A DNA stretch of 32,000 nt from Caldimicrobium thiodismutans (GCF_001548275.1 NZ_AP014945.1:1020001-1052000), one strand, 5' to 3'; numbered from the stretch's first letter, positions 6,197 to 31,775 are shown. Program-made: numbers and translations. The notes: a model not told the origin generated them from the sequence alone.

Positions 6197-6215
6197 AGAG
6201 CCCTCACAGATTTTT

Positions 6216-6230: not shown

Positions 6231-6235
6231 ATTTT

Positions 6236-6263
6236 AAAATAAATTCTTTTCTAAGATTGTCAA
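6236..6263 (-). promoter_or_regulatory. Sigma-70-type promoter for the fur-feoA-feoB operon
   Basis: Minus strand: TTGACA (6263-6258), 16-nt spacer, TATTTT (6241-6236). The -35 lies 6 nt from the repeat terminus GGACGCATAC. Confidence 0.5.
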
Positions 6264-6269
6264 GAACCA

Positions 6270-6371
6270 GTATGCGTCCATATCTTTTGAGGCTCTATAG
6301 GATTTTTTACTATTTTATTTTTTACCTCTTTCCCCTTTTCTACCCTTTCTTTTTCTTGTAAGGATATGCAC
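6270..6371 (-). repeat. Intergenic repeat family copy 1 (short form, reads on the minus strand)
   Basis: Reverse complement: GTGCATATCCTTACAAGAAAAAGAAAGGG...AAAAAATCCTATAGAGCCTCAAAAGATATGGACGCATAC. It shares both cores with copies at 6667, 11216 and 24790 and the 3' core with the copy at 31621. Confidence 0.8.
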
Positions 6372-6666
6372 TTATACAAAAGTCCAGATCTTTACTGCAT
6401 ACACAGACAGGTTTTTTAGAAAGGGTAACTGTATTTGCGATAAGGTTATCTATCAAAAGGTCTGTGAATTTGGTATTGACTATTCCCAGGGCTATTATTT
6501 TCACTCTCCTCTTTCCCCTCCAGAATTGAAAAAGTACTTAAATCAGATTGAGTTTTTATTTCCCTTTTATTAGCCCCGCATCATCCCTTTTTCCAAAGAT
6601 TTTTTTAATACTTTATAATAATTTTTTCTGAGCCTTTTAGTTATCTTATAATCCTTTTCACAGGGG

Positions 6667-6779
6667 GTGCATGAGTTTGTATCCTTACAATAAAAAGAAA
6701 GATTTGAAAAAGGAAAGAAGTAAGAGGTGAGAGGTAGTAGAAAAAATCCTCTTGAGTCTTAAAAGATAGGGACGCATAC
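6667..6779 (+). repeat. Intergenic repeat family copy 2 (short form), inverted relative to copy 1
   Basis: GTGCATGAGTTTGTATCCTTACAATAAAAAGAAAG...AGTAAGAGGTGAGAGGTAGTAGAAAAAATCCTCTTGAGTCTTAAAAGATAGGGACGCATAC. Confidence 0.8.
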
Positions 6780-6785
6780 AACAAG

Positions 6786-6814
6786 TTGATTGATTCCAAG
6801 GCATATATTAAAAT
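6786..6814 (+). promoter_or_regulatory. Sigma-70-type promoter for the lapA-like / serine hydrolase genes
   Basis: TTGATT (6786-6791), 17-nt spacer, TAAAAT (6809-6814). The -35 starts 6 nt after the repeat terminus. Confidence 0.55.
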
Positions 6815-6871
6815 GATGGGAAATTGAAAAAATAGTTTTATAAAAGCGTTTTTTTTTGAAAGGGGGAAAGG

Positions 6872-7168
6872 ATGTTAAGAATTATTCTCTGGATAATTTT
6901 GGTTTTGGGGCTTACTCTCTTTGTGGTTTTTAATGTGGAGCCTAAAGTCACCGTGCATCTTTTACCAGGAGTTTCTCTTGAAGGGATGCCTCTTGCTTTA
7001 GTGATTATGGTAAGCTTTCTTCTTGGGCTTCTTTTTGGGCTTTTAATCCTTTTTCCTCAGATTATTCGAGCAAGGCTCAGGGAAAATCAACTGACAAAGG
7101 AGTTGCAAGGTCTCAAAACAGTAAAGCCTGAGGATAAAGAGAATGCCAAAGATAGTCCCAATTCTTGA
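6872..7168 (+). CDS. LapA-domain (DUF1049) inner-membrane protein
   Basis: 98 aa with two TM helices and the typical pattern LFVVFNVEPKVTVHLLPG...PLALVIMVSFLLGLLFGLL. A basic/coiled tail follows. RBS GGGGGAAAGG precedes the ATG. Confidence 0.75.
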   Translation: MLRIILWIILVLGLTLFVVFNVEPKVTVHLLPGVSLEGMPLALVIMVSFLLGLLFGLLILFPQIIRARLRENQLTKELQGLKTVKPEDKENAKDSPNS

Positions 7169-8204
7169 ACTTCTTAAGGAGGGAGTTAAAAAAGGGGTCT
7201 TCCCGGGTGCTGTTTCAGGAATTTTTTATCAGGGAAGAACCTATGTAATTGCAGGAGGCTATGCCTCCCTTACTCCTTTTCTTGAACCTGTAGAAGAGGC
7301 ATTTCTTTATGATCTTGCTTCCCTAACCAAACCTCTGGGGTTAGGCTTAACCTTAATTTATCATCTTAATAAAAAGCCCCTTCTTGATCTTGAAAAACCT
7401 TTAAGGACTTATCTTGAGGTTGAGCCTCCCCTTGGAGAGGTGCCTCTTTTTCGTTTTCTCAATCATACTTCTGGACTTTCAGCCTGGCATCCCTTTTATA
7501 AAGAAAAACCTCTAACTCTTGAAAAGATCTTTCAGCATATAAAGGAAAGGCCTCTTGAATACGAACCCGGGAAGCGCTGTCTTTATTCGGATCTAAATTT
7601 TTTCCTCTTTACCTATCTTCTTGAAAGAATTTATGGAAAATCCATTGAGGAATTATTTGAAGAGGCCAAGGCAAAGATTCCCTTTTCAAGAAAAGCTGTT
7701 CTTACTTTTAAGCCCCTTTTAAAGGGAATTGATGAAGAAAGAATCGTTCCAACCTCAATTGATCCTGAGACCAAAAAGATCTTGAGAGGGATTGTTGAGG
7801 ATGAAAATACAAGAGCCCTATCTGGAGTTAGTGGGGTTGCCGGGCTTTTTGGAAATATTTACGGGGTTCTGGAACTCTTAATTGAGCTTCTTAAGACTTA
7901 TAGAGGAGAAAAAAGTTTTCTTAATTCGGAACTTATAAAATATTTTTTTGAATTTGAGGATCCCCTTTCAGATTTTGCCTTAATTTTTATGAGGCCTTCA
8001 AAAGAGGGTTATTCAGCGGCAGGAGAAGCTCTTTCAGAAAAAACCATCGGGCATCTTGGATACACAGGTTGTTCTTTTTTTATTGATCTTGAAAGAGATT
8101 TAATTATTGTGCTTTTAAGCAACAGGGTTCATCCTCAGAGAGGAAATGAAAAGATAAAGGATTTTCGGCCCATATTTCACAGGGTAGTAGTTGAAAATTT
8201 ATAA
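7143..8204 (+). CDS. Beta-lactamase-fold serine hydrolase (class C / esterase-like)
   Basis: SxxK active-site motif (ASLTKP). The N-terminus G-FPGAV...G and the C-terminal HLGYTGCSFFIDLERDLIIVLLSNRVHP are typical of the family. It overlaps the upstream gene by 26 nt. Confidence 0.8.
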   Translation: MPKIVPILELLKEGVKKGVFPGAVSGIFYQGRTYVIAGGYASLTPFLEPVEEAFLYDLASLTKPLGLGLTLIYHLNKKPLLDLEKPLRTYLEVEPPLGEVPLFRFLNHTSGLSAWHPFYKEKPLTLEKIFQHIKERPLEYEPGKRCLYSDLNFFLFTYLLERIYGKSIEELFEEAKAKIPFSRKAVLTFKPLLKGIDEERIVPTSIDPETKKILRGIVEDENTRALSGVSGVAGLFGNIYGVLELLIELLKTYRGEKSFLNSELIKYFFEFEDPLSDFALIFMRPSKEGYSAAGEALSEKTIGHLGYTGCSFFIDLERDLIIVLLSNRVHPQRGNEKIKDFRPIFHRVVVENL

Positions 8205-8284
8205 TCTACCTTATTGAGTATAGAAGATGCGGACACCATTAAAGGGATTGCATTAGTAGGAAATTGCATGAGAAAAAATTAACA

Positions 8285-8312
8285 TTGATTTTGAAAAAAG
8301 AGGCCTTAAAAT
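8285..8312 (+). promoter_or_regulatory. Sigma-70-type promoter placed for a leaderless transcript of the AAA-ATPase/PD-(D/E)XK gene
   Basis: TTGATT (8285-8290), 16-nt spacer, TAAAAT (8307-8312). Only 6 nt (AAAGCT) separate the -10 from ATG 8319, and there is no Shine-Dalgarno. Confidence 0.4.
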
Positions 8313-8318
8313 AAAGCT

Positions 8319-9866
8319 ATGAAGAAAAACCTACCCATCGGGATTTCAAGCTTTGAAAAGATTAGAAGTGAACCCTATTATTATGTGGATAAAACTCCAT
8401 TTGTGGCAAAACTCGTAGAAGAGGGAACTTACTATTTTCTCTCTCGCCCAAGGAGATTTGGAAAATCCCTTTTTGTGGACACCCTAAAACAGGCCTTCTT
8501 TGGAAGAAAAGAGCTTTTCCAAGGGCTCTATCTTGAAAAGAACTGGGACTGGAGTGTCAGGTATCCAGTTATTCATATTGATTTTGGGGGAAGAACCCTC
8601 AAAGGAGAGGAACATCTAATAACTTATATTCTTGAACAACTTGAGAAAAATCAGGAAACCCTTGGAGTCTCCTGTTCAGAAAAAGATCTTTATGATAGCT
8701 GTTTTGAGGAATTAATCCTTAAAAGTTATGAAAAATATAAACAAAAAGTAGTTGTGCTTGTGGATGAGTATGACAAACCGATCCTTGATTGCATTGAGGA
8801 TAGAGAAGCGATAAAAAGAATAAGGGATATTCTTGTAAAATTTTATATTGTTTTAAAGCCTCTTGATAGGTATCTCAAATTTGTTCTTTTAACAGGGGTT
8901 TTAAAATTTTATATGTCTTCAATTTTCTCAGGCTTAAATTTCTTAAATGATATTACTTTAAGCAGAAAGTATTCAACTATTTGCGGATTTACTCAAGAAG
9001 AGCTTGAAGAGGTCTTTAAAGAAGAACTGCAAGATAAAGACTTAAAGCTTATTAAATGCTGGTATAATGGTTATTCCTGGCTTGGGGAACCCGTTTACAA
9101 TCCCTTTGATGTGCTTCTTTACCTAAAAGAAAGACAAATTCAGCCTTACTGGTTTGAGACAGGGACTCCCAGTTTTCTTATTAAACTCCTTGTGGAAAAG
9201 AAATTTTATATCCCCCAGCTCTCAGAACTTATGGCTTCAGAGCGCCTCCTTGGAAGCTTTGATGTGGACTTTATTGAACCAGAAAACCTTCTCTTTCAAA
9301 CAGGCTATCTCACCATAAAAGGAGTTGAAGAAATCCCATCGGGATACCTCTATTACCTGAGTTATCCCAATAAAGAGGTTAGAGTTTCCCTGAATAATTA
9401 CATAGTGGATTATTTGACAAGGAAGGGGCCTGAGAGTGCAAGGCTTACCCTTAAATTAACCAGGGCATTGAGGGAGGGAAGGGTTTCCGCCTTTGGAGAG
9501 GTTTTAAAGGCCCTTTTTTCAGGGATTCCCTATGAGTGGTATAGAAGTAATGAGATAGCAGGTTATGAGGGGTATTATGCCAGTGTGGTTTATAGTTTTC
9601 TTGAAGGCGCAGGCTTTGAAGTAATCCCTGAGGATTATACAAGCCTTGGAAGGATTGATTTAACAATAATTTTTGAGGAGAGATGTTTTATAGTTGAGTT
9701 TAAGGTGGTTGAGATGGAAGGGGAGAGTCCTAAGGCTATAGAGAAACTTAAGGAAAAAGGATATCATCAAAAATATCCTGGACGCTTTAAGGAGATATAT
9801 CTTATTGGGTTTGATTTTAGTAAAGAAAAGAAGACTCTCTCAAATTTTGATTGGATAAAGCTTTGA
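8319..9866 (+). CDS. Predicted AAA-ATPase (AAA-ATPase_like N-domain) fused to a PD-(D/E)XK nuclease-like C-domain (DUF1703/PDDEXK_9 type)
   Basis: The N-terminus [51 protein letters not shown] is the hallmark of this family. [10 protein letters not shown] is Walker-B-like. The C-terminus GRIDLTI...FIVEFKV gives D...ExK. Confidence 0.85.
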
Positions 9867-9881
9867 AATCTTGAAAATTTG

Positions 9882-9897
9882 GCCTGTCCGCACAGGC
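9882..9897 (+). promoter_or_regulatory. GC-rich hairpin between the AAA-ATPase gene and TrpB2, directly upstream of the trpB2 RBS
   Basis: GCCTGT-CCGC-ACAGGC is a perfect 6-bp stem with a 4-nt loop. It is followed by AGGGAGGGAAAAATG and has no T-tract, so it is not a classical terminator. Confidence 0.25.
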
Positions 9898-9909
9898 AGG
9901 GAGGGAAAA

Positions 9910-11202
9910 ATGAAAGTAATTTTATCTACTGAAGAACTTCCAAGAAAATGGCTGAATCTTGCTCCCTATCTTCCAGAACCCTTAGAACCACCACTTGATC
10001 CTCAAACCAAGGAACCAGTCTCTCCTGAGAAGCTGCTTGCTATTTTTCCCGAATCCATTGTGGAACAGGAGGTCACTCAGGAGGAATGGCTTGAGATCCC
10101 CGAAGATGTCCTAAAGGTCTATTCCCTTTACAGGCCAACTCCTTTGATCAGGGCAGAAAATCTTGAAAAATACCTTGAAACCCCTGCTAAAATCTTTTAT
10201 AAATATGAAGGGGTTTCTCCTCCAGGAAGCCACAAGCCCAATACCGCTATACCCCAGGCCTATTACAACAAAATCTCAGGGATTAAAAGGCTTACCACTG
10301 AGACAGGGGCTGGGCAGTGGGGAAGCTCTCTTGCCTTTGCTACTCAGTTTTTTGGGCTTGAATGCGAGGTCTATATGGTAAGAGCAAGTTTCAAACAGAA
10401 GCCCTATCGAAGAATCCTTATGGAGCTCTGGGGAGCAAGTGTCTCCCCTTCCCCTTCAGATAAAACAGAGTCAGGAAAAAAATTTCTTGCTATAGATCCA
10501 GAGCATCCTGGAAGCCTTGGAATAGCCATTTCTGAGGCTATAGAAAGGGCAGTCACCTCAAAGGACACCAAGTATGCCCTTGGAAGTGTGCTCAATCATG
10601 TTCTTCATCATCAGACGGTGATCGGTCTTGAAGCTGAGCTACAGATGAAGAAGCTGGGGCTTTATCCCGATTATGTGGTAGGGTGTGTAGGAGGTGGATC
10701 AAACTTTGCAGGGCTTGCCTTTCCCTTTTTGAAGCACAAAATCACAGGGGAAAAGACCCATACGGAGTTTCTGGCTGTTGAGCCTGAGTCTTGTCCAACT
10801 CTTACAAAAGGGGAGTATCGTTACGATTACGGAGACACCGTAGGGCTTACCCCCTTAATCAAAATGTATACCCTTGGAGCTGATTTTGTGCCGCCCCCTA
10901 TCCATGCAGGAGGACTGAGGTATCACGGAGATGCCCCTCTTCTCTGTGCCTTCTATCACCATGGTTTTATCAAAGCCAAAGCCTATTCCCAGGGAGAGGT
11001 CTTTTCAGCAGGGGTTCTCTTTGCCAAAACAGAGGGAATTGTTCCAGCCCCTGAATCAACCCATGCCATAAAGGCAGTCATTGACCTTGCCCTTGAATGT
11101 AAGAAAAATAAAGAGGAAAAGATCATTCTCTTTAATCTTTCAGGGCATGGATATTTTGATCTTTCTGCTTATGATGCCTATTTAAAAGGAGAAATAAAAT
11201 AA
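9910..11202 (+). CDS. trpB: TrpB-like PLP-dependent enzyme (tryptophan synthase beta chain 2, TrpB2 type)
   Basis: N-terminus [27 protein letters not shown]-lysine motif GSHKPNTA, and GGGSNFAG. 430 aa from ATG 9910, which follows GGGAGGG. The track start at 9871 lies inside the hairpin region. Confidence 0.9.
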
Positions 11203-11215
11203 GGTTTTTTTGCGT

Positions 11216-11491
11216 AGCTTCAGATGCTTACAAGAAAAAGGAAGAGTGGTAAGAGGTGAGAGGTGAGAAGTGAGAGGTGGGAGTAGGGGAAGCCCTTGTA
11301 TGTCTGCCCTGTGTAGGGGTTTAAAATTTTAAAACCTTGTAAGGGTTCAAAATCTTGAACTCCTACATTGATGCCAAAAACATATAACAGGCAAACATAT
11401 AGGTTTGTCCCTACAAAATACAGGTTTATTTTCCTTGAACTGAAGCAGCAGAAAAAACCCCCTTTAAATTTCAAAAGATATGGACGCATAC
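11216..11491 (+). repeat. Intergenic repeat family copy 3 (long form with internal insert and 5-unit heptamer tract)
   Basis: CAGATGCTTACAAGAAAAAGGAAGAG, then GGTAAGA GGTGAGA GGTGAGA AGTGAGA GGTGGGA. About 160 bp follows that shares TCCCTACAAAA...ATTTTCCT..AAC.GAAGCAG with the copy at 31621. It ends AAAAAACCCCCTTTAAATTTCAAAAGATATGGACGCATAC. Confidence 0.8.
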
Positions 11492-11497
11492 ATTAGT

Positions 11498-11526
11498 TTG
11501 ACGCTTTGCAGGCTTTGTGCTAAAAT
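11498..11526 (+). promoter_or_regulatory. Sigma-70-type promoter for pgi
   Basis: TTGACG (11498-11503), 17-nt spacer, TAAAAT (11521-11526). The -35 starts 6 nt after the repeat terminus. The ORF-track start at 11517 lies inside this promoter. Confidence 0.6.
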
Positions 11527-11561
11527 ATTTTCAAGACCGGCAATGTAAAAGGAGTTTTTTT

Positions 11562-13280
11562 ATGCGTGCTGATATTCCAAAAGTAGTTAAGGTCTATGGT
11601 GATTTTGGTATCATTAAAAGACCCTCCAAGCTTTCAGAAGAAGAAAAGGAAAAGATACTTCAAAGGCTTTTTCAGAAGGATGCAGAGCTTTTTACTCTTG
11701 ATCCTGATGTTAAGAAGAAGATTCAGGAACGCTTAGATTGGGTAGAGGGCTATAAATATATTGAGCCCAAGCTTAAGGAGCTTAAGACCTTAGCTGAAGA
11801 GATAAGAAGGGAGTATCAGTTTGTCCTTTGGTGCGGGATGGGAGGCTCAGGTCTTTTTCCCTTGGTAATATCTCAGATTTTTACACCAGCTGAAGGCTTT
11901 CCTGAGCTCAAAGTCCTTGACACCAATGACCCCTTTCATATTCAAGAAGCTGAAAGGCTACCCCTTGAGAAGACCCTTTTTGTTATTGTCTCAAAATCAG
12001 GAACCACTCTTGAGACCCTTTCTCACTTCAAATACTTCTGGGAAAAGGTTAAGGCCAATAATTCCGAGCCGGGGAAACAGTTTATAGCCCTTACTGATCC
12101 GGGCTCCCCTCTTGAAGGGTTAGCCCTTGAAAGAGGTTTTAGGAAGATTGTGCATCATCCCCCCTATGTAGGAGGGAGATATGCAGCCCTGACAGAGATA
12201 GGCTTTTTAGCCTCTGCTCTTATGGGGCTTGATTTAGCTAAGGCCCTACATTATGCCAAAGAAATGTATTCTGCTTGTGAACCAGGTATTCCCTGGAATT
12301 ATAATCTCGCCACCACCTTAGCTGAATTTATTACTGAATCTTACATCCTTGGACAGGATAAGCTAACCTTTATTGTGGACCCCCTTTTAAAACCCTTTGC
12401 CCTCTGGTTGGAACAGCTGATAGCAGAAAGTCTTGGGAAAAATTATGCAGGGCTCATACCTGTTGTAGGAGAATCCCCGGGGGCATCAACTGTTTATTCT
12501 TCGGATAGATGTTTTATTTATCTTACTTTAAGGGGTAGAGAGAGGCTCTATCATCGCCTGATTTCAGATCTTAAGGAAGGGGGCTTTCGGATCAAGCAGA
12601 TTGTTCTTGAGGATAGATATGAAGTCTTTGGTGAGGCCTATAGGTTCATGCTGGCAACAGCCCTAACAGGTTACTTTATCGGTGTTAACCCCTTTGATGA
12701 ACCCGATGTTGTGCTCTCCAAGACAAAAACCAGGGAACTTCTTGAAAAATTTAAAAAGGAGGGAGATTTTGGCTTAGAGCTTTATGTAGATAGTGACACA
12801 GGCCTTGGTTTTTATTATGAGAAGACTCTTTCCGTTGAGTATCCAAAGCTTTCAGCCCTTTTTAAAAAGTTCTTTTCTGATTTTGCCCCCTGGATTTATG
12901 TTGGGTTCTTAGCCTATCTTTCCTATGATCCAGAGATAGAGGATATTATCCGAGATATAAGAACCTTTGTCCGGGAAAAGAAAAATTGTGCCACCCTTTT
13001 TGGTTATGGCCCGAGATATTTGCATTCAACAGGGCAACTTTTTAAAGGTGGTCCTCCTCTTGCTCGTTTCATTATTTTTACTCGCCGGGGGCGGATTGAT
13101 TCTCAGATCATTCCTGAAGAGGGATATACTTTTTGGGATCAGCAGTTTGCCCAGGCTTATGGGGACTTTCGCGCCCTTGTTGAAAGGGAAAAACCTGTCC
13201 TTTTGATCCATCTTTTTAATGATCCTAAAGAGGATCTAAGGCTTGTTTTTGAACTTATTAAAAAAGCCTTAACCTTTTAA
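11562..13280 (+). CDS. pgi: Glucose-6-phosphate isomerase (SIS-domain PGI)
   Basis: Motifs WCGMGGSGLFP, SKSGTTLET and VGGRYAALT, plus the N-terminal LDWV leader typical of this PGI type. ATG 11562 is preceded by AAGGAG. Confidence 0.85.
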   Translation: MRADIPKVVKVYGDFGIIKRPSKLSEEEKEKILQRLFQKDAELFTLDPDVKKKIQERLDWVEGYKYIEPKLKELKTLAEEIRREYQFVLWCGMGGSGLFPLVISQIFTPAEGFPELKVLDTNDPFHIQEAERLPLEKTLFVIVSKSGTTLETLSHFKYFWEKVKANNSEPGKQFIALTDPGSPLEGLALERGFRKIVHHPPYVGGRYAALTEIGFLASALMGLDLAKALHYAKEMYSACEPGIPWNYNLATTLAEFITESYILGQDKLTFIVDPLLKPFALWLEQLIAESLGKNYAGLIPVVGESPGASTVYSSDRCFIYLTLRGRERLYHRLISDLKEGGFRIKQIVLEDRYEVFGEAYRFMLATALTGYFIGVNPFDEPDVVLSKTKTRELLEKFKKEGDFGLELYVDSDTGLGFYYEKTLSVEYPKLSALFKKFFSDFAPWIYVGFLAYLSYDPEIEDIIRDIRTFVREKKNCATLFGYGPRYLHSTGQLFKGGPPLARFIIFTRRGRIDSQIIPEEGYTFWDQQFAQAYGDFRALVEREKPVLLIHLFNDPKEDLRLVFELIKKALTF

Positions 13281-13514
13281 AGGAGAAAATATGGTATGGT
13301 AAAAATGTTAGCCATGGCAAATCACCTCGGAATTACTAATCCTTCTATTAAATTTTTGATGGGAATAGAATTAAAGTTGTCCCTTACTCCAACCGCCCGT
13401 GTGGTGATGGCTTTTAAGCCCAGGTGAAATGGAGTTCTTGTCCCTCTTTTTTAAAATTAAGCAAAGGAGACATGCTTATATTATAAACAAAAAAATTGCA
13501 GGAGGTTAAAGAAT

Positions 13515-14492: not shown

Positions 14493-14495
14493 GGA

Positions 14496-15254: not shown

Positions 15255-15255
15255 G

Positions 15256-15957
15256 ATGGAAGAGCACTTTCAGGAACTTGAAAATGCCTTAGGGATCAAT
15301 TTCAAAAATAAAGAGCTCCTTAAAATAGCCTTAACCCATAGTTCTTATCGTATAAGCCATAAACATGAAGACCTTGAAGATAATGAAAGACTTGAATTTG
15401 TTGGAGATGCCCTTTTAAATCTATGTATATCCCTACTTCTTTACGAGAAATTCCCTAAGGATAGAGAGGGAGACCTTACGAAAAAAAGGGCCTATTTAGT
15501 CTGTAAAGAGCGTTTGATAAAGGTAGCTGAGTCTTTGAGGTTACCTGAGTTTTTGCTTACAGGACGCAGGGAAAAAACTCTTGATCTCAAAAGCAGGCTA
15601 AATATGGCAGGCAGGGCAGTTGAGGCACTGATTGGGGCTATTTTTTTGGATCAGGGTCTTGAAAAGGCCTGTAAAGTGGTGCATAAACTTTTTGCTCCCT
15701 ATTTTAAAACCTTAAAATTGAAGCCCCTTGTTGATGCCAAAAGCAGACTCCAAGAATATTTACAAAAGGAAAAGGGGATAATTCCTGTCTATGAAGTTCT
15801 TGAGATTACAGGGCCTGCACATAAACCGGAGATTGAGGTTGTAGTAAAGGTGGAAGATATGGTTTTGGCAAAAGCTAAAGGAACCTCCCGGAAAGAGGCT
15901 GAGAACCTTGCAGCTAAAAAGGCCCTTACTAAATTGAAAAAGCAAAGCAAAGCATGA
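15256..15957 (+). CDS. rnc: Ribonuclease III
   Basis: ALTHSSY and the catalytic signature NERLEFVGDA, with a C-terminal dsRBD (KSRLQEYLQK...GPAHKPEIEV...GTSRKEAENLAAKKAL). ATG 15256 lies 1 nt after the rlpA stop. Confidence 0.95.
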   Translation: MEEHFQELENALGINFKNKELLKIALTHSSYRISHKHEDLEDNERLEFVGDALLNLCISLLLYEKFPKDREGDLTKKRAYLVCKERLIKVAESLRLPEFLLTGRREKTLDLKSRLNMAGRAVEALIGAIFLDQGLEKACKVVHKLFAPYFKTLKLKPLVDAKSRLQEYLQKEKGIIPVYEVLEITGPAHKPEIEVVVKVEDMVLAKAKGTSRKEAENLAAKKALTKLKKQSKA

Positions 15958-16679
15958 AGTGCTATGTGGGGACTTCAGGCTGGAGTTATTACTCCTTTAA
16001 GGGGATCTTTTATCCTGAAGAATTGAAACCCAAAGAATGGCTTAAGTTTTACAGTCAACATTTTAAAACAGTTGAAATAAATGCTACCTTTTACCGAACT
16101 CCTCGGCCCCAAACCTTTAAAAAATGGTATCATGAGACACCAGCAGATTTTATCTTCACTATAAAGGCCCCTAAGGTTATCACCCATATTAAAAGACTCA
16201 AAGAGGTTGCAGAGGAACTAAAGGTCTTTTTAAAGAGTATTGCTCATCTCGGAGAAAAGGCAAAAGTCTTACTTTTTCAATTACCCCCCTCTTTAAAATA
16301 TGAAAGAGGGCTTATAGAGCAGTTTTTAGAGCTTTTATCAGAGGATTATAGGTCTGTTATTGAGATACGCAATGCAAGCTTTCATAATGAGGAATTTGCA
16401 GACTTACTCAGGAAGAAGGGAGTTGCTCTATGTTTCTCTGATTGTGGAGGACGATACCCTTCTTGGTATGAAGTTATAACTGCAGATTTCCTATATCTGA
16501 GACTCCACGGCTCCCCCGAGCTATATGTTTCTAATTATACAGATGAAGAACTTAAAAGCCTTGCAAAGCTTGTGAAATCTTATCAGGTAAAAGAGGCCTA
16601 TGTTTATTTTGATAATACCGCTCTGGGTTATGCAGTATTAAATGCTCAGACCTTTTTGAAATTTTTTGAAAATTCTTAA
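15954..16679 (+). CDS. DUF72 (UPF0759/YecE-like) family protein
   Basis: YVGTSGWSY..W.G.FYP, WLKFYSQHFKTVEINATFYRTP, LFQLPPS and VYFDN are the characteristic DUF72 blocks. ATGA start/stop overlap with rnc. Confidence 0.85.
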   Translation: MKCYVGTSGWSYYSFKGIFYPEELKPKEWLKFYSQHFKTVEINATFYRTPRPQTFKKWYHETPADFIFTIKAPKVITHIKRLKEVAEELKVFLKSIAHLGEKAKVLLFQLPPSLKYERGLIEQFLELLSEDYRSVIEIRNASFHNEEFADLLRKKGVALCFSDCGGRYPSWYEVITADFLYLRLHGSPELYVSNYTDEELKSLAKLVKSYQVKEAYVYFDNTALGYAVLNAQTFLKFFENS

Positions 16680-16691
16680 AAAGATTTTAAG
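16675..16691. terminator. AT-rich perfect hairpin containing the stop codons of both convergent genes (possible weak bidirectional terminator)
   Basis: CTTAAAA-AGA-TTTTAAG is a 7-bp perfect stem. The TAA of the DUF72 gene (16677-16679) and the TAA of the response regulator (complement of 16687-16689) each sit in one arm. Confidence 0.25.
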
Positions 16692-21433: not shown

Positions 21434-21443
21434 AAATGAGGTC

Positions 21444-21905: not shown

Positions 21906-21910
21906 AAAGC

Positions 21911-23236: not shown

Positions 23237-23340
23237 AAGCTCCCACCTCTTTAATGATTTAGATTATAAAGTAGCACAAACCTTTTTAGAATTCAAGCGG
23301 GATATCTCCTAATGCCTCCTTTAATTTTTTGAAGGAATTT

Positions 23341-23370
23341 ATTTTACCTCCCCCTACTTTTTATTGTCAA
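23341..23370 (-). promoter_or_regulatory. Sigma-70-type promoter for the ffh-smpB-sbcC-mobA-RR operon
   Basis: Minus strand: TTGACA (23370-23365), 18-nt spacer, TAAAAT (23346-23341). This is about 100 nt upstream of the ffh GTG. Confidence 0.55.
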
Positions 23371-23701
23371 TTTTTTCCCCGGAAATAATCCCCTTTTTTT
23401 CTCTAAATATGCTCTCTCGAGCATTTTCTAATACCTCCTTATCTTTCTGTAAAGCTCCTTTACCTTCCCACCCACTTTTTCCTTTGAAATAAGTTTTACG
23501 AAAGAACTAAGCTTGTAAATTCAAGAGGGGCGAAATAGATATTTTTATCGTGAAGGTTCAAGAGAGGAGCTAAGATTTTTTATATGAGGCAACGATAAAA
23601 TTTTGAATAGATTTTTAATGAGGCAATTCGACATCTTCCAAAATAAAAATTAATTGTTAAAATTTAATTTTATAGGTAACTTTTGATTATAAGGAGGAGC
23701 T

Positions 23702-24112: not shown

Positions 24113-24126
24113 AAGTAAAAAGCTTT

Positions 24127-24750: not shown

Positions 24751-24789
24751 CCTATTCCACTAACATTTTAACAGGATTTAAAACAAAGG

Positions 24790-24904
24790 TGTATGCACCT
24801 CTATCTTTTGAGGCTTAAAGCTACCTCTTTTGACAGATAAATCTGCCTTTCACCTCTCACCTTTTTCCCCTCCTTCCTTTTTCTTGTAAGGATCTGAGCT
24901 TATG
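24790..24904 (-). repeat. Intergenic repeat family copy 4 (short form, reads on the minus strand, degenerate 3' terminus)
   Basis: Reverse complement: GCATAAGCTCAGATCCTTACAAGAAAAAGGAAGGAGGGGAAAAAGGTGAGAGGTGAAAGG...GCCTCAAAAGATAGAGGTGCATAC. No convincing -35/-10 follows its terminus, which faces the 3' end of the phosphatase gene. Confidence 0.75.
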
Positions 24905-25024
24905 CAACCAAAACCTTATATGGAGAGAGAACTTTTTTCAATTTTCTACAAAATTCATAAAATGTTGCAAAAATTAAATCTGGTATTACCCTCTAAAACT
25001 AAAAATACTAAGGAGGAGGGGGAT

Positions 25025-25981: not shown

Positions 25982-26007
25982 AAAAACTTTTAGAAAGGAG
26001 GGAAACA

Positions 26008-26424
26008 ATGGCTAAAGAAATCAAACCTTCAGAAGAACAGCTTTCCTATGCAGCTCTTCTTGATATAGGTATGAAATTAGGTCTTATTGGAATTGTGATT
26101 ACTTTTGCGATTTATGTTTTTGGAATTTTTTCTCCTTACCTACCCGTTGAGGATTTGCCTCAGTATTGGAAACTTAATGTCCACAAATATCTTGAGGTTA
26201 CCAGGATTCAGTCTGGTTGGGCCTGGATCACCCTTCTTCACAAAGGCGATTTTTTGAACTTTTTACCCATTGCCTTTCTCAGTGCTTTAAGCATAATTTG
26301 TTATATAAGGATTCTTCCTATTTTTCTTAAAAAGAAGGAGTCCATATATGCCTTTTTGGCTCTTCTTCAGGTATTGATTCTACTTTTAGCTGCCTCAGGA
26401 ATTCTCAAAGTGGGAGGGCACTAA
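26008..26424 (+). CDS. Small integral membrane protein, DUF1634-like partner of TauE permeases
   Basis: 138 aa with 3-4 TM segments. It starts 26 nt after the TauE gene behind the RBS AAGGAGGG. The family assignment rests on size, topology and context only. Confidence 0.45.
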   Translation: MAKEIKPSEEQLSYAALLDIGMKLGLIGIVITFAIYVFGIFSPYLPVEDLPQYWKLNVHKYLEVTRIQSGWAWITLLHKGDFLNFLPIAFLSALSIICYIRILPIFLKKKESIYAFLALLQVLILLLAASGILKVGGH

Positions 26425-26431
26425 GAGGATT

Positions 26432-26459
26432 TTGAAATTTAATTAATCTGCATTATAAT
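26432..26459 (+). promoter_or_regulatory. Sigma-70-type promoter for SRP RNA (and probably selC)
   Basis: TTGAAA (26432-26437), 16-nt spacer, TATAAT (26454-26459). The predicted start lies a few nt before the SRP RNA 5' helix at 26471. Confidence 0.6.
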
Positions 26460-26470
26460 TTTTCATTAAG

Positions 26471-26571
26471 GCTATTGGGGGCTTGTGCGACGGATCCCGG
26501 TGAACCCCGCCAGGCCCGAAAGGGAGCAACGGTAGCCGGGCTCTCCGGGTGCCGCAAGTTTCCCCAATAGC
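26471..26571 (+). ncRNA. ffs: Small (4.5S-type) signal recognition particle RNA
   Basis: The terminal helix pairs GCTATTGGGG with CCCCAATAGC. The conserved domain IV is CCAGGCCCGAAAGGGAGCAACGGTAGC (compare E. coli CAGGUCCGGAAGGAAGCAGCCAAGGCAG). It is a GC-rich island in AT-rich DNA. Confidence 0.9.
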
Positions 26572-26589
26572 CCCTTGCATTTTTTAAAT

Positions 26590-26682
26590 GGAGGCGTGAG
26601 GGGGCTGGTGCCCCTCCCGGGCTTCAAACCCGGTGCACCCCAAAAAGGGGTGGGTGGGTTCAATTCCCATACGCCTCCGCCA
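26590..26682 (+). tRNA. selC: tRNA-Sec (anticodon TCA), CCA encoded
   Basis: 8-bp acceptor stem GGAGGCGT/ACGCCTCC. 6-bp D-stem GGGGGC-TGGT-GCCCCT. Anticodon arm CCGGG-CTTCAAA-CCCGG. Long variable arm CACCCC-AAAAA-GGGGTG. 5-bp T-stem GTGGG-TTCAATT-CCCAT. Discriminator G plus CCA. This is the bacterial 8/5 tRNA-Sec architecture. Confidence 0.9.
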
Positions 26683-26769
26683 TAAGGATAAATTGGCCCC
26701 CCTCATTTTAACCAGATCATTTTTTATCTCCTTTCTTTCTCTATGCTATCATTCTGGAGGATATAACCT

Positions 26770-28194
26770 ATGCTTAAAAGGGTAATTACCTTACTCTTAA
26801 TTTTTGTTTTTATTACAATCACCCCTCTTAAGGCTCTAATTTCCCTTGAGGAGGAAGAGAAAATTGGTAAAGAAGTGTTACAGGAGGTTTCCAGAAGTCT
26901 TGAGATATTAAAGGATGTGGAGGCTGTAACTTATGTCAATCTACTTGGTGAGCTTCTTTCTCAAAAAGGGGTTTCCTTTTCTCCCTTTAATTTTCGTTTC
27001 TTCATTATCAAAGATAAAACTTTCAATGCCTTCTCCGTTCCAGGGGGCTATATATTTTTAAATACAGGACTTTTTGAGTCTCTTGAAAGTGAGGATGAGC
27101 TTGCTGGTATTCTGGCCCATGAAATGAGCCATAATTTAGCAAGGCATGTAGCCAAGAGGATTGAGACTATTAAAAAAATGCAGATAGCTACAACTGCAGC
27201 AACCTTAGCAGCAATTTTTCTTGGTGGCGGGCAGGCAGGACAGATTGTGGGGATTACGGGAACTGCCTTGGCTCAGACCAAGCTTCTTGCTTACAGCCGA
27301 ATGGATGAAGAAGAGGCAGACCGCATGGGTTTTGAGATTCTCACCAAAGCAGGATTTAATCCTCAAGCTATGGCACGGGTCTTTCAAAGGCTATCCAAGG
27401 AAAGCTCCTTTGCCATAGAATTAAATTATCGTTATCTCCTTACCCATCCTTTACCTCAGGAAAGATTGAATTATCTGCAAAATCTTGCAGAAAGGAGTGC
27501 CATTCCCTTCAAGGATCGCTATACCCTTTCGGGAGATCCCTATTATTTTTTAAGATTAAAGGCAAGAATTCGGGGTGAAGCCGAGGACTCAAGTGACCTT
27601 ATTCTGGTTTTAAAGGCCCAGCTAAAGGAAAAGGATGATCCCCTTTTGCGCTATCAATTAGGTATTGCCCTGATGGAGAGTAGATTTTTTGTTGAGGCAG
27701 AAAAAGAACTTACCACAGCCTTAAAAGGTCTTCCCTCCAGAGATTACTTTAAACTTGATCTTGCAGAGCTTTACTTTCAAAAAGGTGACTATGTTAAGGC
27801 CAGAGAGATCCTAAGTGCCCTTTCTTTTTCTAAATCAGGACTTGGAGAAATCCTGGAACTCAAAAGAAAATATCTCTTAGCCCGAGCCTACTCTGAGACA
27901 GGGGAATTAAACCAGAGTTATCAAATTTTTAAGGCCTTAGATGAAAACAAATTCCTCAAACAGGATCCCTTTTTTTATTACCACTTTGGTCTTCTCTGTT
28001 CCCGTATGGAGCTCTTAGGGGAATCCCATTTTTATTTTGGGAAATACTATGAAAATAGAGGAGACTTTAAGACAGCTGTCTTTCATTACAAAAAAGCCCT
28101 TTCCTTTTTACAAAAAGACTCTAAAATGTATTTAGAGGCAGAAAAAAAGGTGAAGGACCTTGACAGAGGTAAAGAAAAGAAGGTTTTACCTTAA
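26770..28194 (+). CDS. M48 family zinc metalloprotease with C-terminal TPR repeats (BepA/YfgC-like)
   Basis: Signal peptide, HEMSHNLARH (HExxH), a downstream EEEADRMG, and an approximately 200-aa TPR-like helical repeat region. Confidence 0.85.
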   Translation: MLKRVITLLLIFVFITITPLKALISLEEEEKIGKEVLQEVSRSLEILKDVEAVTYVNLLGELLSQKGVSFSPFNFRFFIIKDKTFNAFSVPGGYIFLNTGLFESLESEDELAGILAHEMSHNLARHVAKRIETIKKMQIATTAATLAAIFLGGGQAGQIVGITGTALAQTKLLAYSRMDEEEADRMGFEILTKAGFNPQAMARVFQRLSKESSFAIELNYRYLLTHPLPQERLNYLQNLAERSAIPFKDRYTLSGDPYYFLRLKARIRGEAEDSSDLILVLKAQLKEKDDPLLRYQLGIALMESRFFVEAEKELTTALKGLPSRDYFKLDLAELYFQKGDYVKAREILSALSFSKSGLGEILELKRKYLLARAYSETGELNQSYQIFKALDENKFLKQDPFFYYHFGLLCSRMELLGESHFYFGKYYENRGDFKTAVFHYKKALSFLQKDSKMYLEAEKKVKDLDRGKEKKVLP

Positions 28195-28729
28195 GGGCTT
28201 TAAAGCTTCAATAGCTGTCTTATTTTTATTTACAGGAATAGCTTTGGCAGGAGGAAAGGCTATGCAAATATCTTCTCCGGCCTTTTCAGATAAAGGTAAG
28301 ATTCCAGTTAAATATGTAATGCCTGGGGCTGGAGGTAAGAATATATCTCCTCCTCTTAAGTGGGAGAGTATCCCTGAAGGGACTCTATCCCTTGTTTTAG
28401 TCTGTGTGGATATTCACCCCGTTGCCAGAAACTGGATTCACTGGGTTATAATCAATATCCCCCCTACAGTAAAGGAATTTAAAGAGGGAGCTTCCATGAA
28501 AGAGATTTCTCCTCCAGCTAAGGAATTGATCAACTCTTTTGGATTTAAGGGTTGGGGAGGACCACAACCCCCTCCTGGCACAGGGGATCATCCCTATGTT
28601 TTTAAACTTTTTGCCCTCAAAGTTTCAGAAATAAAACTTACAGAAAAACCAAGCTATAAAGACCTTTTAAGGGCTTTAAAGCCCCATGTGCTTGCCGAAG
28701 CTGAATATACCGGCTATTTTGGAAGGTAA
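28160..28729 (+). CDS. PEBP family protein (YbhB/YbcL-type), probably secreted
   Basis: SPAFSDKGKIPVKY, SPPLKW, LVLVCVDIHPVARNWIHWVIINIP, and GWGGPQPPPGTGDHPYVFKLFAL. A signal-like N-terminus appears if TTG 28160 is used. The start is uncertain. Confidence 0.85.
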   Translation: MTEVKKRRFYLKGFKASIAVLFLFTGIALAGGKAMQISSPAFSDKGKIPVKYVMPGAGGKNISPPLKWESIPEGTLSLVLVCVDIHPVARNWIHWVIINIPPTVKEFKEGASMKEISPPAKELINSFGFKGWGGPQPPPGTGDHPYVFKLFALKVSEIKLTEKPSYKDLLRALKPHVLAEAEYTGYFGR

Positions 28730-28739
28730 AGGAGGTCAA

Positions 28740-29006
28740 ATGGAAAAGGTCTTAGCTACTGGTAAGACCCACAAAATAAAAGTTAAAAAACCCTTTCTTT
28801 TGCCAAGAAAGGAAAAGATAATTTGTCCCTTTTGTGGTAATTCTGAGGAATTTTATGATATTATTGAAAATGCCACCTTTTATATCCACTATCTTCAAAC
28901 TGAAGAGGGTCATTTAGAACCTGTAGAAGAGGAGGCAGAGGTTCTGGGGCCAGTTAAGTTTTTCTGCGGATCCTGTAATGCTGATCTTACCTATCTCAAA
29001 AAATAA
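28740..29006 (+). CDS. Small zinc-ribbon protein (two CxxC pairs), function unknown
   Basis: 88 aa from ATG 28740 with a strong RBS AAAGGAGGT. The motifs CPFCG and CGSCN are separated by about 45 aa. Gaps are 10 nt to the upstream gene and 6 nt to the downstream gene. Confidence 0.55.
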   Translation: MEKVLATGKTHKIKVKKPFLLPRKEKIICPFCGNSEEFYDIIENATFYIHYLQTEEGHLEPVEEEAEVLGPVKFFCGSCNADLTYLKK

Positions 29007-29012
29007 ACCCTG

Positions 29013-29798
29013 ATGTCCCCTTTTTATGTCATTCCTACTTATCAATCCCTTTTAAGAAATTTTCCCCTTTTAAAAAAGGGGGACCTCCTTTTAACCAGAA
29101 TTCCCATCAGACCAGATAACTTCCATCTTATTTTTGATCTTCAATGTCGTGAAGTCATATCTTTTCCAAGCTTTCTGTCACAGATCCTGAGTGCCTCAAA
29201 GGTTGCTCAGGCAGAAATTTTGAGAGAATTTATGCCTCCTTATACCTATGTTATCAAAAATCAGGTCTCTCTTCTTCAGGTTATGCAAAATCCCCCACCT
29301 TATGCAGGTTTTATCACTAAAAAGGATCAGGCTAACTGTGGATTAGGAGTTAAACTCTGGAGAGATCTTGAGGAGCTTTTTAATCTTGCTGGAACGCAAG
29401 CCCTTGAATTTCCCTTTGTCTTACAGCCTTTATTTAGAGACTGGAAGGACTTGAGAGTGATTGTTCTTGGTGAGCTTTATAAGGAGGCCTATTTAAGAGA
29501 AAACCCGGACAACTTCAGACAAAATCTTTTCTTTGGAGGAAAAGCAACTCCCTATGAACTATCTGAGGAGGAAACCACCTTTTGCAAAAGAGTGATGGAA
29601 AGAGGAGGTTTTTTCTTTGCTCATCTTGATCTTGCCTATATTGAAGGAAAGGGCCCCTATCTCTCTGAAATCAATCTGAAGGGTGGTATAAAGGGTGCCT
29701 CCATTAAGCCTCTTGAATATGAAAAGATACTCCACCGGCTAAGAGAGGATTTTTTCAATCACTGGAAAGAGGAGCATCAACCCTTTGAAATACTCTAA
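29013..29798 (+). CDS. RimK-like ATP-grasp ligase domain protein
   Basis: FITKKDQANCGLGVKLW is a K...G.GV ATP-binding loop. LRVIVLGELYKEAYLREN..NFRQNLFFGGKA matches the R.N...GG motif. FAHLDLAYIEGKGPYLSEINLKGGIKG matches the D....E.N Mg-ATP site. 261 aa. Confidence 0.7.
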   Translation: MSPFYVIPTYQSLLRNFPLLKKGDLLLTRIPIRPDNFHLIFDLQCREVISFPSFLSQILSASKVAQAEILREFMPPYTYVIKNQVSLLQVMQNPPPYAGFITKKDQANCGLGVKLWRDLEELFNLAGTQALEFPFVLQPLFRDWKDLRVIVLGELYKEAYLRENPDNFRQNLFFGGKATPYELSEEETTFCKRVMERGGFFFAHLDLAYIEGKGPYLSEINLKGGIKGASIKPLEYEKILHRLREDFFNHWKEEHQPFEIL

Positions 29799-31540
29799 GA
29801 TCCTTCAAGGGCAGGGAGAAAAAATCTCTTTATAACACTTTCCCAGTCAAGTTTACTCAGATAGGGCTGAGTCTTTTCATAAAGGTAAAGTCTTTCCTCT
29901 TCTGTTTTAGGCAATTTCTTGTAGATTAATTCTGAATATTTAGCTATAGCTAACTCTTCAAGGACATCTCTTTTATCCTCAGAAAGAGTTAAGAGAAGCG
30001 TTTCAGGAAGGTCCTTAGCAATCTCTACAAAATTTATAGCCACATAGGGTTTAAAGTCTTCTGAAAAAATCTTTTCAAGAAAAAAATAAACCCCGCAGGA
30101 GGTTGAAAGCAGAGAAAGACCCCCGGATGGAAGAACTTCAATATGAGAGATTCCAAAGGGTTCATAGATGGAAAACCCCAATTCCACATCACTTGCCAGT
30201 CTTAAATCTCTGGTGGTTATGTCTTCAGGAAAATCAATACCACATTTTCTTTTGGATAATCCAAATTGATTAATAAAAATAGCTTTAATAGCTTTAGCTT
30301 GGGAATTAAATTTCTCAATAAGTTGGTAAACTTCAATTTCATAGCCTACCAGATCTGGCCAACCAATTTTGTGTTCAAAGGGCCAGCCATATTCCTGGAC
30401 CATTCGGTCAACAGCCTCAACAGGTCTTCCCTGGGGGACTTGTGAAGCAAGAAGAAAGAAGATCCCTTTTAGGTTTTCCCTTGCAAGCAGGGAATCTAAG
30501 AAGAAAAAGAGTTTTATATCCCTCCAGACACCTTTACTTTTAACTAATCGACAGGCATGAGAAAAAATAAGGTCAACCCTATCACATCCCTTTTGACTTA
30601 GACATTTGGAAAATTTTTTCCTGCTAAGTTGAACCTCTTCAAAGGATATGTGATCTACAGACAGGCCATTATAAACTACCTTAATCTTTGATGGATCTGC
30701 TTCTGGGACAAGAAATTTATATTCCTCAGCAACAAGATCGCCTACTGCAAATATTTTATCAAAGCGGTGAGCCAGTTTCACAAGGGCTGTTCTATACCAG
30801 TCCATCTGAGGTCCAAATATCTCTTCAAGACTTCGTTGGTTAGCTTTGGACTTTTCAAGAAGATTATAAAAGGTGATATCATGTCCAGGCAAATTTTCCA
30901 CAATTCTACGAACCGGTGCTACCTCATGGGCATAAAATATTCTCTGATGCTTTTCAGGATTAAATTCAGGGTGAAGTTCAAGAGCTAATAGAGAGGGAAT
31001 TCCCATATACTCATGTCCAAAATGGTAAAATTTTGAGGCTTTTGGATATAGTAGTTTTAAAAATTCAAGATAGCAGAAACTGATTCTAAGATACTGCTCA
31101 TAGTCCCAATCTCGTTCATATTTATCTGAGGAAAGCCCAAATTTTTCCCAAAAGAGGTATTTTTGATAAATTACCTCCTCCTTTTTCATCTGGGTTATGT
31201 CAACAAGCAGGACATCAACCTTTGCCTGACGGGAAGGATTTAATTCACTAAGGAGGCGTCTTTTCCCATATACAATATCAATGTTATATTTTTCAAGAAC
31301 AGGTTTGAAAAGTTCACCAAAGTGGCCTGTGTCATAGTGATCTTTACTGGAATAGTAAACAACTCCGTCTTTTCCAAGGCGCGTTGAAGCAGAGCCAATG
31401 TATTCAAAGAGGGGGCCATAAAAGAGGGTCTTTTCAAAAAAGTTTTGATAACTTGGAGCTGTGCAAAGCCCTGCGAGAACTTCTCCAATGCCACCAATTT
31501 TATATAACGCCTCATGCGATATGTGTATAGCCACCTTCAT
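29795..31540 (-). CDS. GT-B glycosyltransferase resembling glycogen/starch synthase
   Basis: The N-terminus MKVAIHISHEALYKIGGIGEVLAG is the KxGG(I/L) donor-binding motif of glycogen synthases. The C-terminal half has YEPFGISHIEVLPSGGLSLLSTSCG (E-x7-E-like region). GT3 versus GT4/5 cannot be resolved by eye. Confidence 0.65.
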   Translation of the reverse strand: MKVAIHISHEALYKIGGIGEVLAGLCTAPSYQNFFEKTLFYGPLFEYIGSASTRLGKDGVVYYSSKDHYDTGHFGELFKPVLEKYNIDIVYGKRRLLSELNPSRQAKVDVLLVDITQMKKEEVIYQKYLFWEKFGLSSDKYERDWDYEQYLRISFCYLEFLKLLYPKASKFYHFGHEYMGIPSLLALELHPEFNPEKHQRIFYAHEVAPVRRIVENLPGHDITFYNLLEKSKANQRSLEEIFGPQMDWYRTALVKLAHRFDKIFAVGDLVAEEYKFLVPEADPSKIKVVYNGLSVDHISFEEVQLSRKKFSKCLSQKGCDRVDLIFSHACRLVKSKGVWRDIKLFFFLDSLLARENLKGIFFLLASQVPQGRPVEAVDRMVQEYGWPFEHKIGWPDLVGYEIEVYQLIEKFNSQAKAIKAIFINQFGLSKRKCGIDFPEDITTRDLRLASDVELGFSIYEPFGISHIEVLPSGGLSLLSTSCGVYFFLEKIFSEDFKPYVAINFVEIAKDLPETLLLTLSEDKRDVLEELAIAKYSELIYKKLPKTEEERLYLYEKTQPYLSKLDWESVIKRFFLPALEGS

Positions 31541-31579
31541 AAGATTTTCCCCTTTGAAATCTTTATTAATTTTTCAAGT

Positions 31580-31607
31580 ATCATAAAAGGATATTTCCTT
31601 ATGTCAA
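31580..31607 (-). promoter_or_regulatory. Sigma-70-type promoter for the glycosyltransferase gene
   Basis: Minus strand: TTGACA (31607-31602), 16-nt spacer, TATGAT (31585-31580). A second ATATTGACA copy sits 13 nt upstream. RBS AAGGGGA precedes ATG 31540. Confidence 0.5.
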
Positions 31608-31620
31608 TATATTTTGTCAA

Positions 31621-31775
31621 TATAAGCCTCTTTCCCTTTCCCCACCTCTAAAAACATAAGTTCCTATCCCTACAAAAAAAAAGAAGGGTTGGAAAAGGAG
31701 GAAAGTTCATTTTCCTACAACAGAAGCAGTAGAAAAAATCCTCTTAAGTTTCAAAAGATATGGACATAAATACTC
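31621..31775 (+). repeat. Intergenic repeat family copy 5 (long-form 3' half plus an inverted pyrimidine-tract fragment)
   Basis: TATCCCTACAAAAAAAAAGAAGG...CATTTTCCTACAACAGAAGCAGTAGAAAAAATCCTCTTAAGTTTCAAAAGATATGGACATAAATAC. The preceding CCTCTTTCCCTTTCCCCACCTCT resembles the complement of the purine tract. Confidence 0.7.

Follow-up and report, generated by a model that had tools for sequence, protein, structure and literature searches.

A family of short intergenic repeats is dispersed over the stretch of DNA analyzed here (Caldimicrobium thiodismutans, NZ_AP014945.1:1020001-1052000; 32 kb in all, called the window below and numbered from its first nucleotide). The genes near its five copies, c1 to c5, are ordinary chromosomal ones (fur-feoAB, lapA, pgi, ffh, rrf2, and a gene of the TauE family), and the RNA genes of the window specify signal recognition particle RNA, tRNA-Sec, and tRNA-Lys. 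For comparison, we used DNA 96 to 99.8% identical to the window on several strain-variant contigs (L009, L010, and L032) of NCBI assembly GCA_017880035.1, together with further window-like loci in two Logan run assemblies (L011 and L012). The closest named homologues lie in the same genus, with Fur about 80% identical to proteins from metagenome-assembled genomes of Caldimicrobium sp. and the AAA-ATPase 83% identical to C. thiodismutans THC_0502.

Copies and architecture of the repeat family

An nhmmer profile built from the five copies and run over the window matched exactly those five, with E values from 3e-31 to 1e-11, the next match having an E value of 0.1. Separate profiles of the 5' and 3' modules, derived from 11 to 13 distinct loci, likewise found only these five in the window. 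The family described in the initial annotation is therefore real. Two weaker look-alikes that had been mentioned with it, at 8215-8255 and 23430-23515, are not significant by profile, and the second lies inside the remnant of a different insertion sequence (IS). Reading and alignment of the five segments bear out the proposed architecture of a 5' core (ATCCTTACAAGAAAAAG), a tract rich in GGTGAGA, and a 3' core (...TCAAAAGATATGGACGCATAC), in short forms of 109 to 120 bp and a long form of 282 bp. As had also been stated, no open reading frame (ORF) is conserved in any frame across the window copies, and there is no transposase gene in the window.

Two short copies, c1 (6270-6378, minus strand, 109 bp; E = 3e-30, with module matches) and c2 (6668-6780, plus strand, 113 bp; E = 6e-30), stand head to head with a 289-bp spacer between them. 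The tips of c1 are TGTATAAG on the left and ...GCATAC on the right, its terminal inverted repeats (TIRs) match at 12 of 17 positions, and its right tip is located 6 nt upstream of the fur-feoAB promoter. A 7-bp tandem array of 3.7 units lies within c2 (6711-6736, plus strand; Tandem Repeats Finder [TRF]). The long copy, c3 (11211-11492, plus strand, 282 bp; two nhmmer high-scoring segment pairs), is a composite in which a left end and heptamer array are followed by an unrelated insert of about 100 bp with palindromes and then by a right half of the c5 type (about 11393-11492), assigned from the similarity of c5 to c3 and L033a. Copy c4 (24790-24906, minus strand, 117 bp, short form; E = 3e-31) is antisense between two plus-strand genes, and its sequence is identical in L012. 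Finally, c5 (31654-31773, plus strand, 120 bp; E = 2.5e-26) has a deviating left core, ATCCCTACAAAA; the start first given for it, 31621, took in a pyrimidine tract outside the element proper. It shares 62 nt of extra internal sequence with c3 (85% identity), which defines a variant subfamily also found in L033.

Some features around the copies deserve mention in their own right. Within the c1-c2 spacer (6382-6667), pyrimidines form a tract at 6500-6522 and the motif GCATAC occurs at 6398-6403; together they resemble a further decayed minus-strand copy, but the profiles detect none there. At the variant right end of c4 (24787-24810), the plus strand reads as a 5-bp hairpin, AGGTG TATG CACCT, followed by a T-rich run just past a His_Phos_1 gene. 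A scan lists a terminator-like site there (24787-24800), and the hairpin and T-rich run may serve as a terminator. The annotated start codon of the TauE gene (ATG at 24902) falls inside the left tip of c4, and the true start is possibly further downstream.

The family had also been called structured, and a structured noncoding RNA or cis-regulatory leader might be expected to be conserved in this way. Besides the conservation itself, a small hairpin (CCTTACAAGAAAAAGG) that alifold retains in most copies would fit such a role. The element copies have no Rfam match at the gathering score or at an E value of up to 1, however, and their folding z-scores range from -2.0 to +1.2 over both strands. 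The alifold consensus amounts to -2.96 kcal/mol with no covariation support, the covariation term being unfavorable (+0.36). No stable hairpin is common to the copies, the unit being about 110 bp long with inverted repeats at its termini only, and the elements are positioned upstream of predicted promoters rather than in leaders. We regard an RNA function as highly improbable, and "structured" does not describe this family. Likewise, a repeat of the repetitive extragenic palindrome or bacterial interspersed mosaic element (REP/BIME) type, with a unit of 20 to 40 bp forming an imperfect palindrome, was rejected, as the copies have no such unit.

Transposase relics and the origin of the family

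The same cores flank relics of a transposase gene in sister loci. On L031, a 582-kb contig of GCA_017880035.1, a 5' module (E = 1.7e-12) and a 3' module (E = 5e-9) at 15800-16112 enclose an ORF that matches the integrase-core domain rve_3 (E = 5e-13). This ORF is the C-terminal part of an rve/rve_3 transposase and runs directly into the 3' core (...NTIESQKIWTYT / ...ERPHSGLQQVSPIKYLCYAQRKNTIESQKIWTYT). In L027, the 5' module is followed in the same orientation by an upstream part of the same transposase gene (...TDNGSEF...PKGNGYVERFNRTLEE...), interrupted by another IS; the stretch AAAAAGGAAAGGTGGTAAAATG in this locus is a ribosome-binding site with start codon. The L031 and L027 interiors are 100% identical over 71 nt. 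The protein composed from both has its best NCBIfam match in NF033577, the IS481-family transposase (E = 4.9e-31, 108 bits, model positions 142 to 283 of 284), with IS3 in second place (E = 3e-17), and matches rve, rve_2, and rve_3 in Pfam. Two loci from related species, L022 and L023, have a decayed element directly upstream of the fur promoter; it measures about 610 bp, its tips are similar, and transposase remnants are still recognizable in it (tblastn, E = 8e-13).

Because the cores of the short repeats enclose the transposase relic in L031, and the 5' core precedes it in L027, we take them to be the ends of an IS. Judged from the sequence, the 5' core is the left inverted repeat together with the transposase leader, and the 3' core consists of the last 13 or so transposase codons and the right inverted repeat. 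The TIRs are imperfect: the left end (TGCATAAGTTCAGATCC) agrees with the reverse complement of the right tip (TGTATGCGTCCATATCT) at 8 to 12 of 17 positions in the copies compared and, once L031 has been re-registered, at 13 of 17 there. The terminal sequences are TGTATGC on the right and TGCATAA on the left. Members of the IS481 family have inverted repeats that begin with 5'-TGT and are flanked by short direct repeats. The element described here resembles them (NF033577) in termini that start with TG(T/C), in a single rve-type DDE transposase, and in an inferred full length of about 1 kb. It differs in that the parents are decayed or interrupted, that no direct repeats were found, and that the score, obtained with half a protein, is under the family cutoff.

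[quoted passage not shown] Of the earlier label "MITE/REP-like," the first half thus stands, the cores being IS481-type IS ends, and the second does not.

Of the IS, the short forms retain some 46 nt on the left and some 40 nt on the right. In c1, c2, c5, and the L009 copy these are joined at one and the same junction, in which the purine tract is followed by (T/C)AGTA and the A-run of the 3' core. This shared junction argues for a single deleted ancestor that multiplied, which is the behavior of a MITE, and we infer that the short form was mobilized in trans. Alternatively, a full-length IS may have been present at each locus and have been trimmed there separately, the short copies never having been mobile. 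Such decay in situ is consistent with the coexistence of long, medium, and short forms (about 610 bp in L022, 313 bp in L031, about 250 bp in L032, 206 bp in L033, and 282 bp in c3), with the existence of solo 5' or 3' halves, and with the lack of target-site duplications. It does not readily account for a common junction in copies of near-equal length, an outcome unlikely to arise from independent deletions, nor for the 75 to 88% similarity among copies, which is what a single deleted ancestor would leave. Since the junction is shared, we consider separate decay at each locus the less likely course of events, and an improbable one.

Several observations nevertheless weigh against this account of the repeats as mobilized derivatives of an IS481-family element. 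An intact parent IS was not found in the DNA examined, which yielded frameshifted or interrupted relics only, and the 108 bits scored against NF033577 fall short of the NCBI full-length cutoff of 224, only the C-terminal half of the protein being preserved. A DDE transposase should leave a target-site duplication; the 3- to 6-nt flanks of c1, c2, c3, c4, L031, L032, and L033 mismatch. Such duplications could have been erased by frequent recombination among some 100 copies. Among the strains there is no clean filled/empty polymorphism, all differences being rearrangements or insertions of other ISs. In the short forms, the alignment of the purine middle with the IS leader is a loose one. No source was found for the c3 insert, which has no detectable protein-level homology to the transposase. 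Finally, the sample of about 131 kb comes from one mixed metagenome assembly and was anchored on IS and AAA-ATPase paralogs, so that it is not random.

As a scenario, we propose that a single deletion gave rise to the short form, which the parental transposase then multiplied in trans, and that the Shine-Dalgarno-like purine stretch of the transposase leader expanded into a slippage-prone array of 7-bp units. In c3 this array is a variable-number tandem repeat of GAGAGGT (11244-11283, plus strand, 5.7 units; TRF), and the orthologous copy is longer by 14 nt (two units) in L009 and shorter by as much in L010. Today, the elements are probably fossil.

Placement of the elements next to promoters

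The placement of the elements was examined at 12 loci where the right end is intact and no less than 45 nt of native DNA follow it, taking as promoter-like a -35 hexamer with at least 4 of 6 matches, a spacer of 16 to 18 nt, and a -10 hexamer. A sigma-70-like site begins 5 to 7 nt past the terminal ...ATAC at seven of these loci, against a background of 0.013 per position (binomial probability of at least 7 in 12, ~5e-11). These docked loci are c1 (fur), c2 (lapA), c3 (pgi), L009 (an encapsulated-ferritin-like gene, EncFtn), L030 (AAA-ATPase), L031 (thioredoxin), and L032 (a 130-amino-acid gene), and in every one of them the right end faces the gene. A stricter promoter scan independently lists the three in the window. 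The fur promoter, TTGACA-16-TATTTT (6236-6263, minus strand), begins 6 nt after the right tip of c1 and is followed by a Fur-box-like palindrome. Those of lapA, TTGATT-17-TAAAAT (6786-6814, plus strand), and pgi, TTGACG-17-TAAAAT (11498-11526, plus strand), each begin 5 to 6 nt after the tips of c2 and c3.

Three loci come close. L033 has TTGACA at 7 nt and no passing -10 hexamer; L012, upstream of rrf2, has TTCCAA-16-TAAAAT at 6 nt; and TTGACA occurs 2 nt after the tip of c5 (31776, plus strand), upstream of the tRNA-Lys gene identified by tRNA search (31830-31902). Two copies without a promoter, c4 and L028 6700-6748, are exceptions. In addition, a solo left half (L028 1438-1506) abuts TTGACA. 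By analogy with the latter, a purine tract in the window, AGAGGTGGGGAAAGGGAAAGAG (31629-31649, minus strand), may be an inverted left-half remnant, not significant alone; it abuts the TTGACA of the promoter of a 581-amino-acid gene (31607-31580). Overall, position and orientation of the elements relative to promoter-like sites are highly nonrandom. The spacing of 5 to 7 nt is constant whether the free space on the other side amounts to 2 nt or more than 100 nt, so that lack of room does not explain it.

The -35 and -10 hexamers and the Fur box of the fur promoter are retained in L025, which has no element, and the AAA-ATPase promoter is common to paralogs without one. The promoters must therefore predate the elements, and a promoter forming part of the element was rejected on the same grounds. 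Other candidate sites within the cores were discarded as well. A sigma-54 promoter in the 3' core has the wrong GG/GC spacing on inspection; an integration host factor site, a Fur box, or a dif/Xer site gave no convincing match there, the Fur box being located downstream of the -10 hexamer; and a divergent promoter in the 5' core (TTGTAA) has no -10 hexamer at 16 to 18 nt.

The docking raises the alternative that the family is a promoter-upstream cassette maintained by the host, acting between -42 and -62 like an UP element, a bent-DNA segment, or an activator site and tuning expression through the heptamer array, and that it spread by recombination or gene conversion instead of transposition. 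Such a cassette would account for the fixed spacing and orientation of the 3' core relative to -35 hexamers and for the absence of target-site duplications. It would also fit the A-tracts of the 3' core, which by reading of the copies lie about 20 nt apart, the near-palindrome ATATG-GACG-CATAT at the tip, perfect in L010, the strain-dependent length of the heptamer array, and the arrival of c2 at lapA along with a promoter. Yet the cores can be shown to be IS ends and coding sequence, and the similarity extends over at least 100 nt, including positions that no binding site requires. Moreover, c4 and L028 6700-6748 lack a promoter, and the fur and AAA-ATPase-paralog promoters do without the element. 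We therefore think it unlikely that these are host cassettes in origin. The modular regulatory cassette suggested in the initial annotation is a possible reading, in that the elements are placed nonrandomly with respect to promoters; the promoters, however, were there before the elements. Co-option after insertion is compatible with the IS-derived reading and does not replace it. Candidate regulatory features, as far as sequence can suggest them, are the UP-like A/T-rich stretch or the near-palindrome at -55 to -42 and the variable spacer array.

A second element shows the same docking. This IS, here termed ISx, is 1.42 kb long and weakly IS481-like, with two frameshifted ORFs and an rve domain. 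It is represented by five full copies (L010 507-1926, L027 1684-3098, L028 9044-10458, L029 3049-4424, and L030 2-1446) and two deleted derivatives, of which one, about 320 bp long, is the remnant in the window upstream of rrf2 (23313-23632, minus strand; found by blastn with the L010 IS) and the other is in L033 (about 770-1095). In four of the six known flanks (those at pgi, ssrA, rrf2, and one unnamed gene), 5 nt separate its transposase-proximal end from a -35-like hexamer downstream. In three cases ISx directly follows a repeat-family tip, and the end of the window remnant coincides exactly with the site of the repeat-family right tip in the sister strain L012 (GCATACA/ACATC TTCCAA). At its other end, ISx has an outward TTGACA-18-TAAAAT, which in the window (23370-23341, minus strand) faces ffh.

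These observations on both elements (7 of 12 loci and 4 of 6 flanks) allow the tentative proposal, to which we give well under even odds, that two different IS481-like elements choose their insertion point by the promoter, in such a way that one defined end, in a fixed orientation, comes to lie 5 to 7 bp upstream of the -35 hexamer. The transposase would then be guided by a TTGAC-type sequence or by bound sigma factor or RNA polymerase. If true, this would explain why ISx is found between the repeat-family tip and the -35 hexamer. A literature search in a limited library retrieved no description of -35-directed insertion, which is no proof of novelty. The closest precedent for the docking geometry is the ISAba32 subgroup of IS1202, whose left inverted repeat (IRL) is inserted 5 to 6 bp from XerC/D sites in a fixed orientation and whose transposases are of the rve type and distantly related to IS481 (bioRxiv 10.1101/2022.12.17.520857). 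Like these, the repeat family has an end at a fixed 5 to 7 bp from a protein-binding DNA site and in one orientation, partial copies keep the spacing, and there are tandem or nested insertions at the same site. In contrast, the site here is sigma-70-promoter-like (TTGACA-N16-18-TAAAAT) and not Xer, it is the right rather than the left inverted repeat that faces it in the repeat family, and the spacer, which in the ISAba32 type equals the direct repeat in length, has no visible duplication on the other side.

In the scenario outlined above, insertion, or the retention of what was inserted, would have been directed to the point 5 to 7 bp ahead of a -35 hexamer of the sigma-70 type, the right end being turned toward the gene. 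Today those promoters would have the elements as their upstream border (about -41 to -150), from where the elements may modulate them.

Rearrangements, distribution, and relation to known elements

The elements also mark sites of structural change. Where synteny breaks between L009, L010, L032, and the window, it does so at or inside an element. In the window, a block of lapA, beta-lactamase-like, AAA-ATPase, and TrpB-like genes stands between fur and pgi (6197-11516), bounded by c1/c2 and c3. In L032 (7682-8850), the same block follows hsp33, with lapA directly after hsp33 and both c2 and the lapA promoter absent. L010 has both junctions of the block, and in the outgroup locus L025 (2246-2418) fur and pgi are adjacent, with no such block between them. 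The repeats themselves have received insertions: an IS1380-like fragment of about 700 bp, with the inverted repeat CCYAAATTGCCGATAGAA and a weak match to DDE_Tnp_1_4 (L010 6630-7335 and 15160-15850), accounts for three of them in L010, all at one point within the 3' core that is 8 to 10 nt from the tip (junction compared with L032 5205-5245), which suggests that it targets the repeat sequence specifically.

Some neighboring sequences are repetitive as well. The gene with AAA-ATPase_like and PDDEXK_9 domains (8319-9866) is one of many paralogs, found at L009 16611-18161 and in L030, L031, and L033, with five in C. thiodismutans; these often directly adjoin repeats. Two pieces of the pgi-hemB spacer (13282-13347 and 13409-13505) are 89 to 92% identical to segments in L027, which there form the continuation of the IS481-like transposase relic, with about 1 kb of extra DNA between them. 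They are another shared or mosaic intergenic module. At the end of the window, the 3' part of tRNA-Lys and its downstream sequence (31860-31999) are repeated with 100% identity at L028 10597-10736. There the repeat adjoins Prim-Pol/DUF927, topoisomerase, TrwC-relaxase, and AAA_30 genes, a neighborhood that is probably an integrative element using tRNA-Lys as its attachment site.

The family is numerous. At least 17 loci were counted in the roughly 131 kb, on at least eight contigs of one hot-spring Caldimicrobium population, and the profile search distinguished at least 12 5' modules and 11 or more 3' modules. The initial figure of "hundreds per genome" was an overextrapolation from a window in which copies are unusually dense. 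Five loci, about 1 per 15 kb, lie in the flanks of L028, L029, L031, and L033, which at 78 kb are the least biased part of the sample; this extrapolates to around 100 copies per genome if the size is that of the C. thiodismutans chromosome, about 1.81 Mb. The Logan contigs L011 and L012 start inside the repeat, as expected of a multicopy sequence. Exact-pattern scans for the 3' core in GTDB genomes and JGI metagenomes gave single matches at chance level only, these collections evidently being without the host species.

No significant copy was found in the related Caldimicrobium loci L022 to L026, whose Fur proteins are 79 to 81% identical. In L025, fur and pgi are divergent neighbors 174 bp apart with no element, and the element is absent upstream of EncFtn in L022, L023, and L025, relatives only about 80% identical in Fur; the EncFtn upstream region of L022 differs from that of the window lineage. 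L022 retains only the decayed fur relic of about 610 bp. Because relatives have this relic (L022 and L023) and no significant copies, the IS family must be old in the genus, and the short form expanded in the lineage of the window. The 54-amino-acid ORFs called near fur in different assemblies were set aside, being mutually unrelated.

IS-derived MITEs are known from other prokaryotes, for example, Correia/CREE of Neisseria and MITEAba12 of Acinetobacter (PMC10969869). The repeat family resembles these in its size of about 110 to 280 bp with short and long forms, its imperfect TIRs and noncoding character, its numerous copies scattered between genes, most of them a short way upstream of one, and its link to promoters and strain-level genome plasticity. 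At 109 to 282 bp, all window copies are below the limit of about 500 bp for MITEs and without a transposase gene. Unlike Correia, the family has no TA duplication, and compared by description only, it has its -35 and -10 hexamers outside the conserved element, whereas Correia/CREE has 26-bp inverted repeats and internal promoter hexamers. Sequence, host phylum, and parent IS family differ from those of both Correia and MITEAba12, and mobility of the repeat family is inferred. An internal tandem array of variable copy number recalls BrickBuilt, the minisatellite-bearing MITE of Porphyromonas gingivalis (PMC4596501). Here, in contrast, the unit measures just 7 bp and comes from the transposase leader, and host and sequence are unrelated.

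In kind, then, the repeat family is ordinary, an undescribed IS481-derived MITE in a little-studied thermophilic genus. To recognize it is of practical use mainly in annotation, as it gives rise to spurious ORFs, interrupts assemblies made from short reads, and flags the junctions of rearrangements; nearly all structural differences between the strain contigs of one hot-spring population are located at the elements. The ribosome-binding leader of a transposase has here become an array of 7-bp units that varies among strains and occupies about -60 to -90 in host promoters, where it is a possible tuner of expression. The part worth pursuing is the promoter-docking geometry common to two IS types. 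If insertion is indeed directed by the promoter, such elements would form a class by which the upstream half of promoters is systematically rewritten, and the 5- to 7-bp docking shared by the repeat family and ISx could reveal promoter-directed target choice by rve-type transposases.

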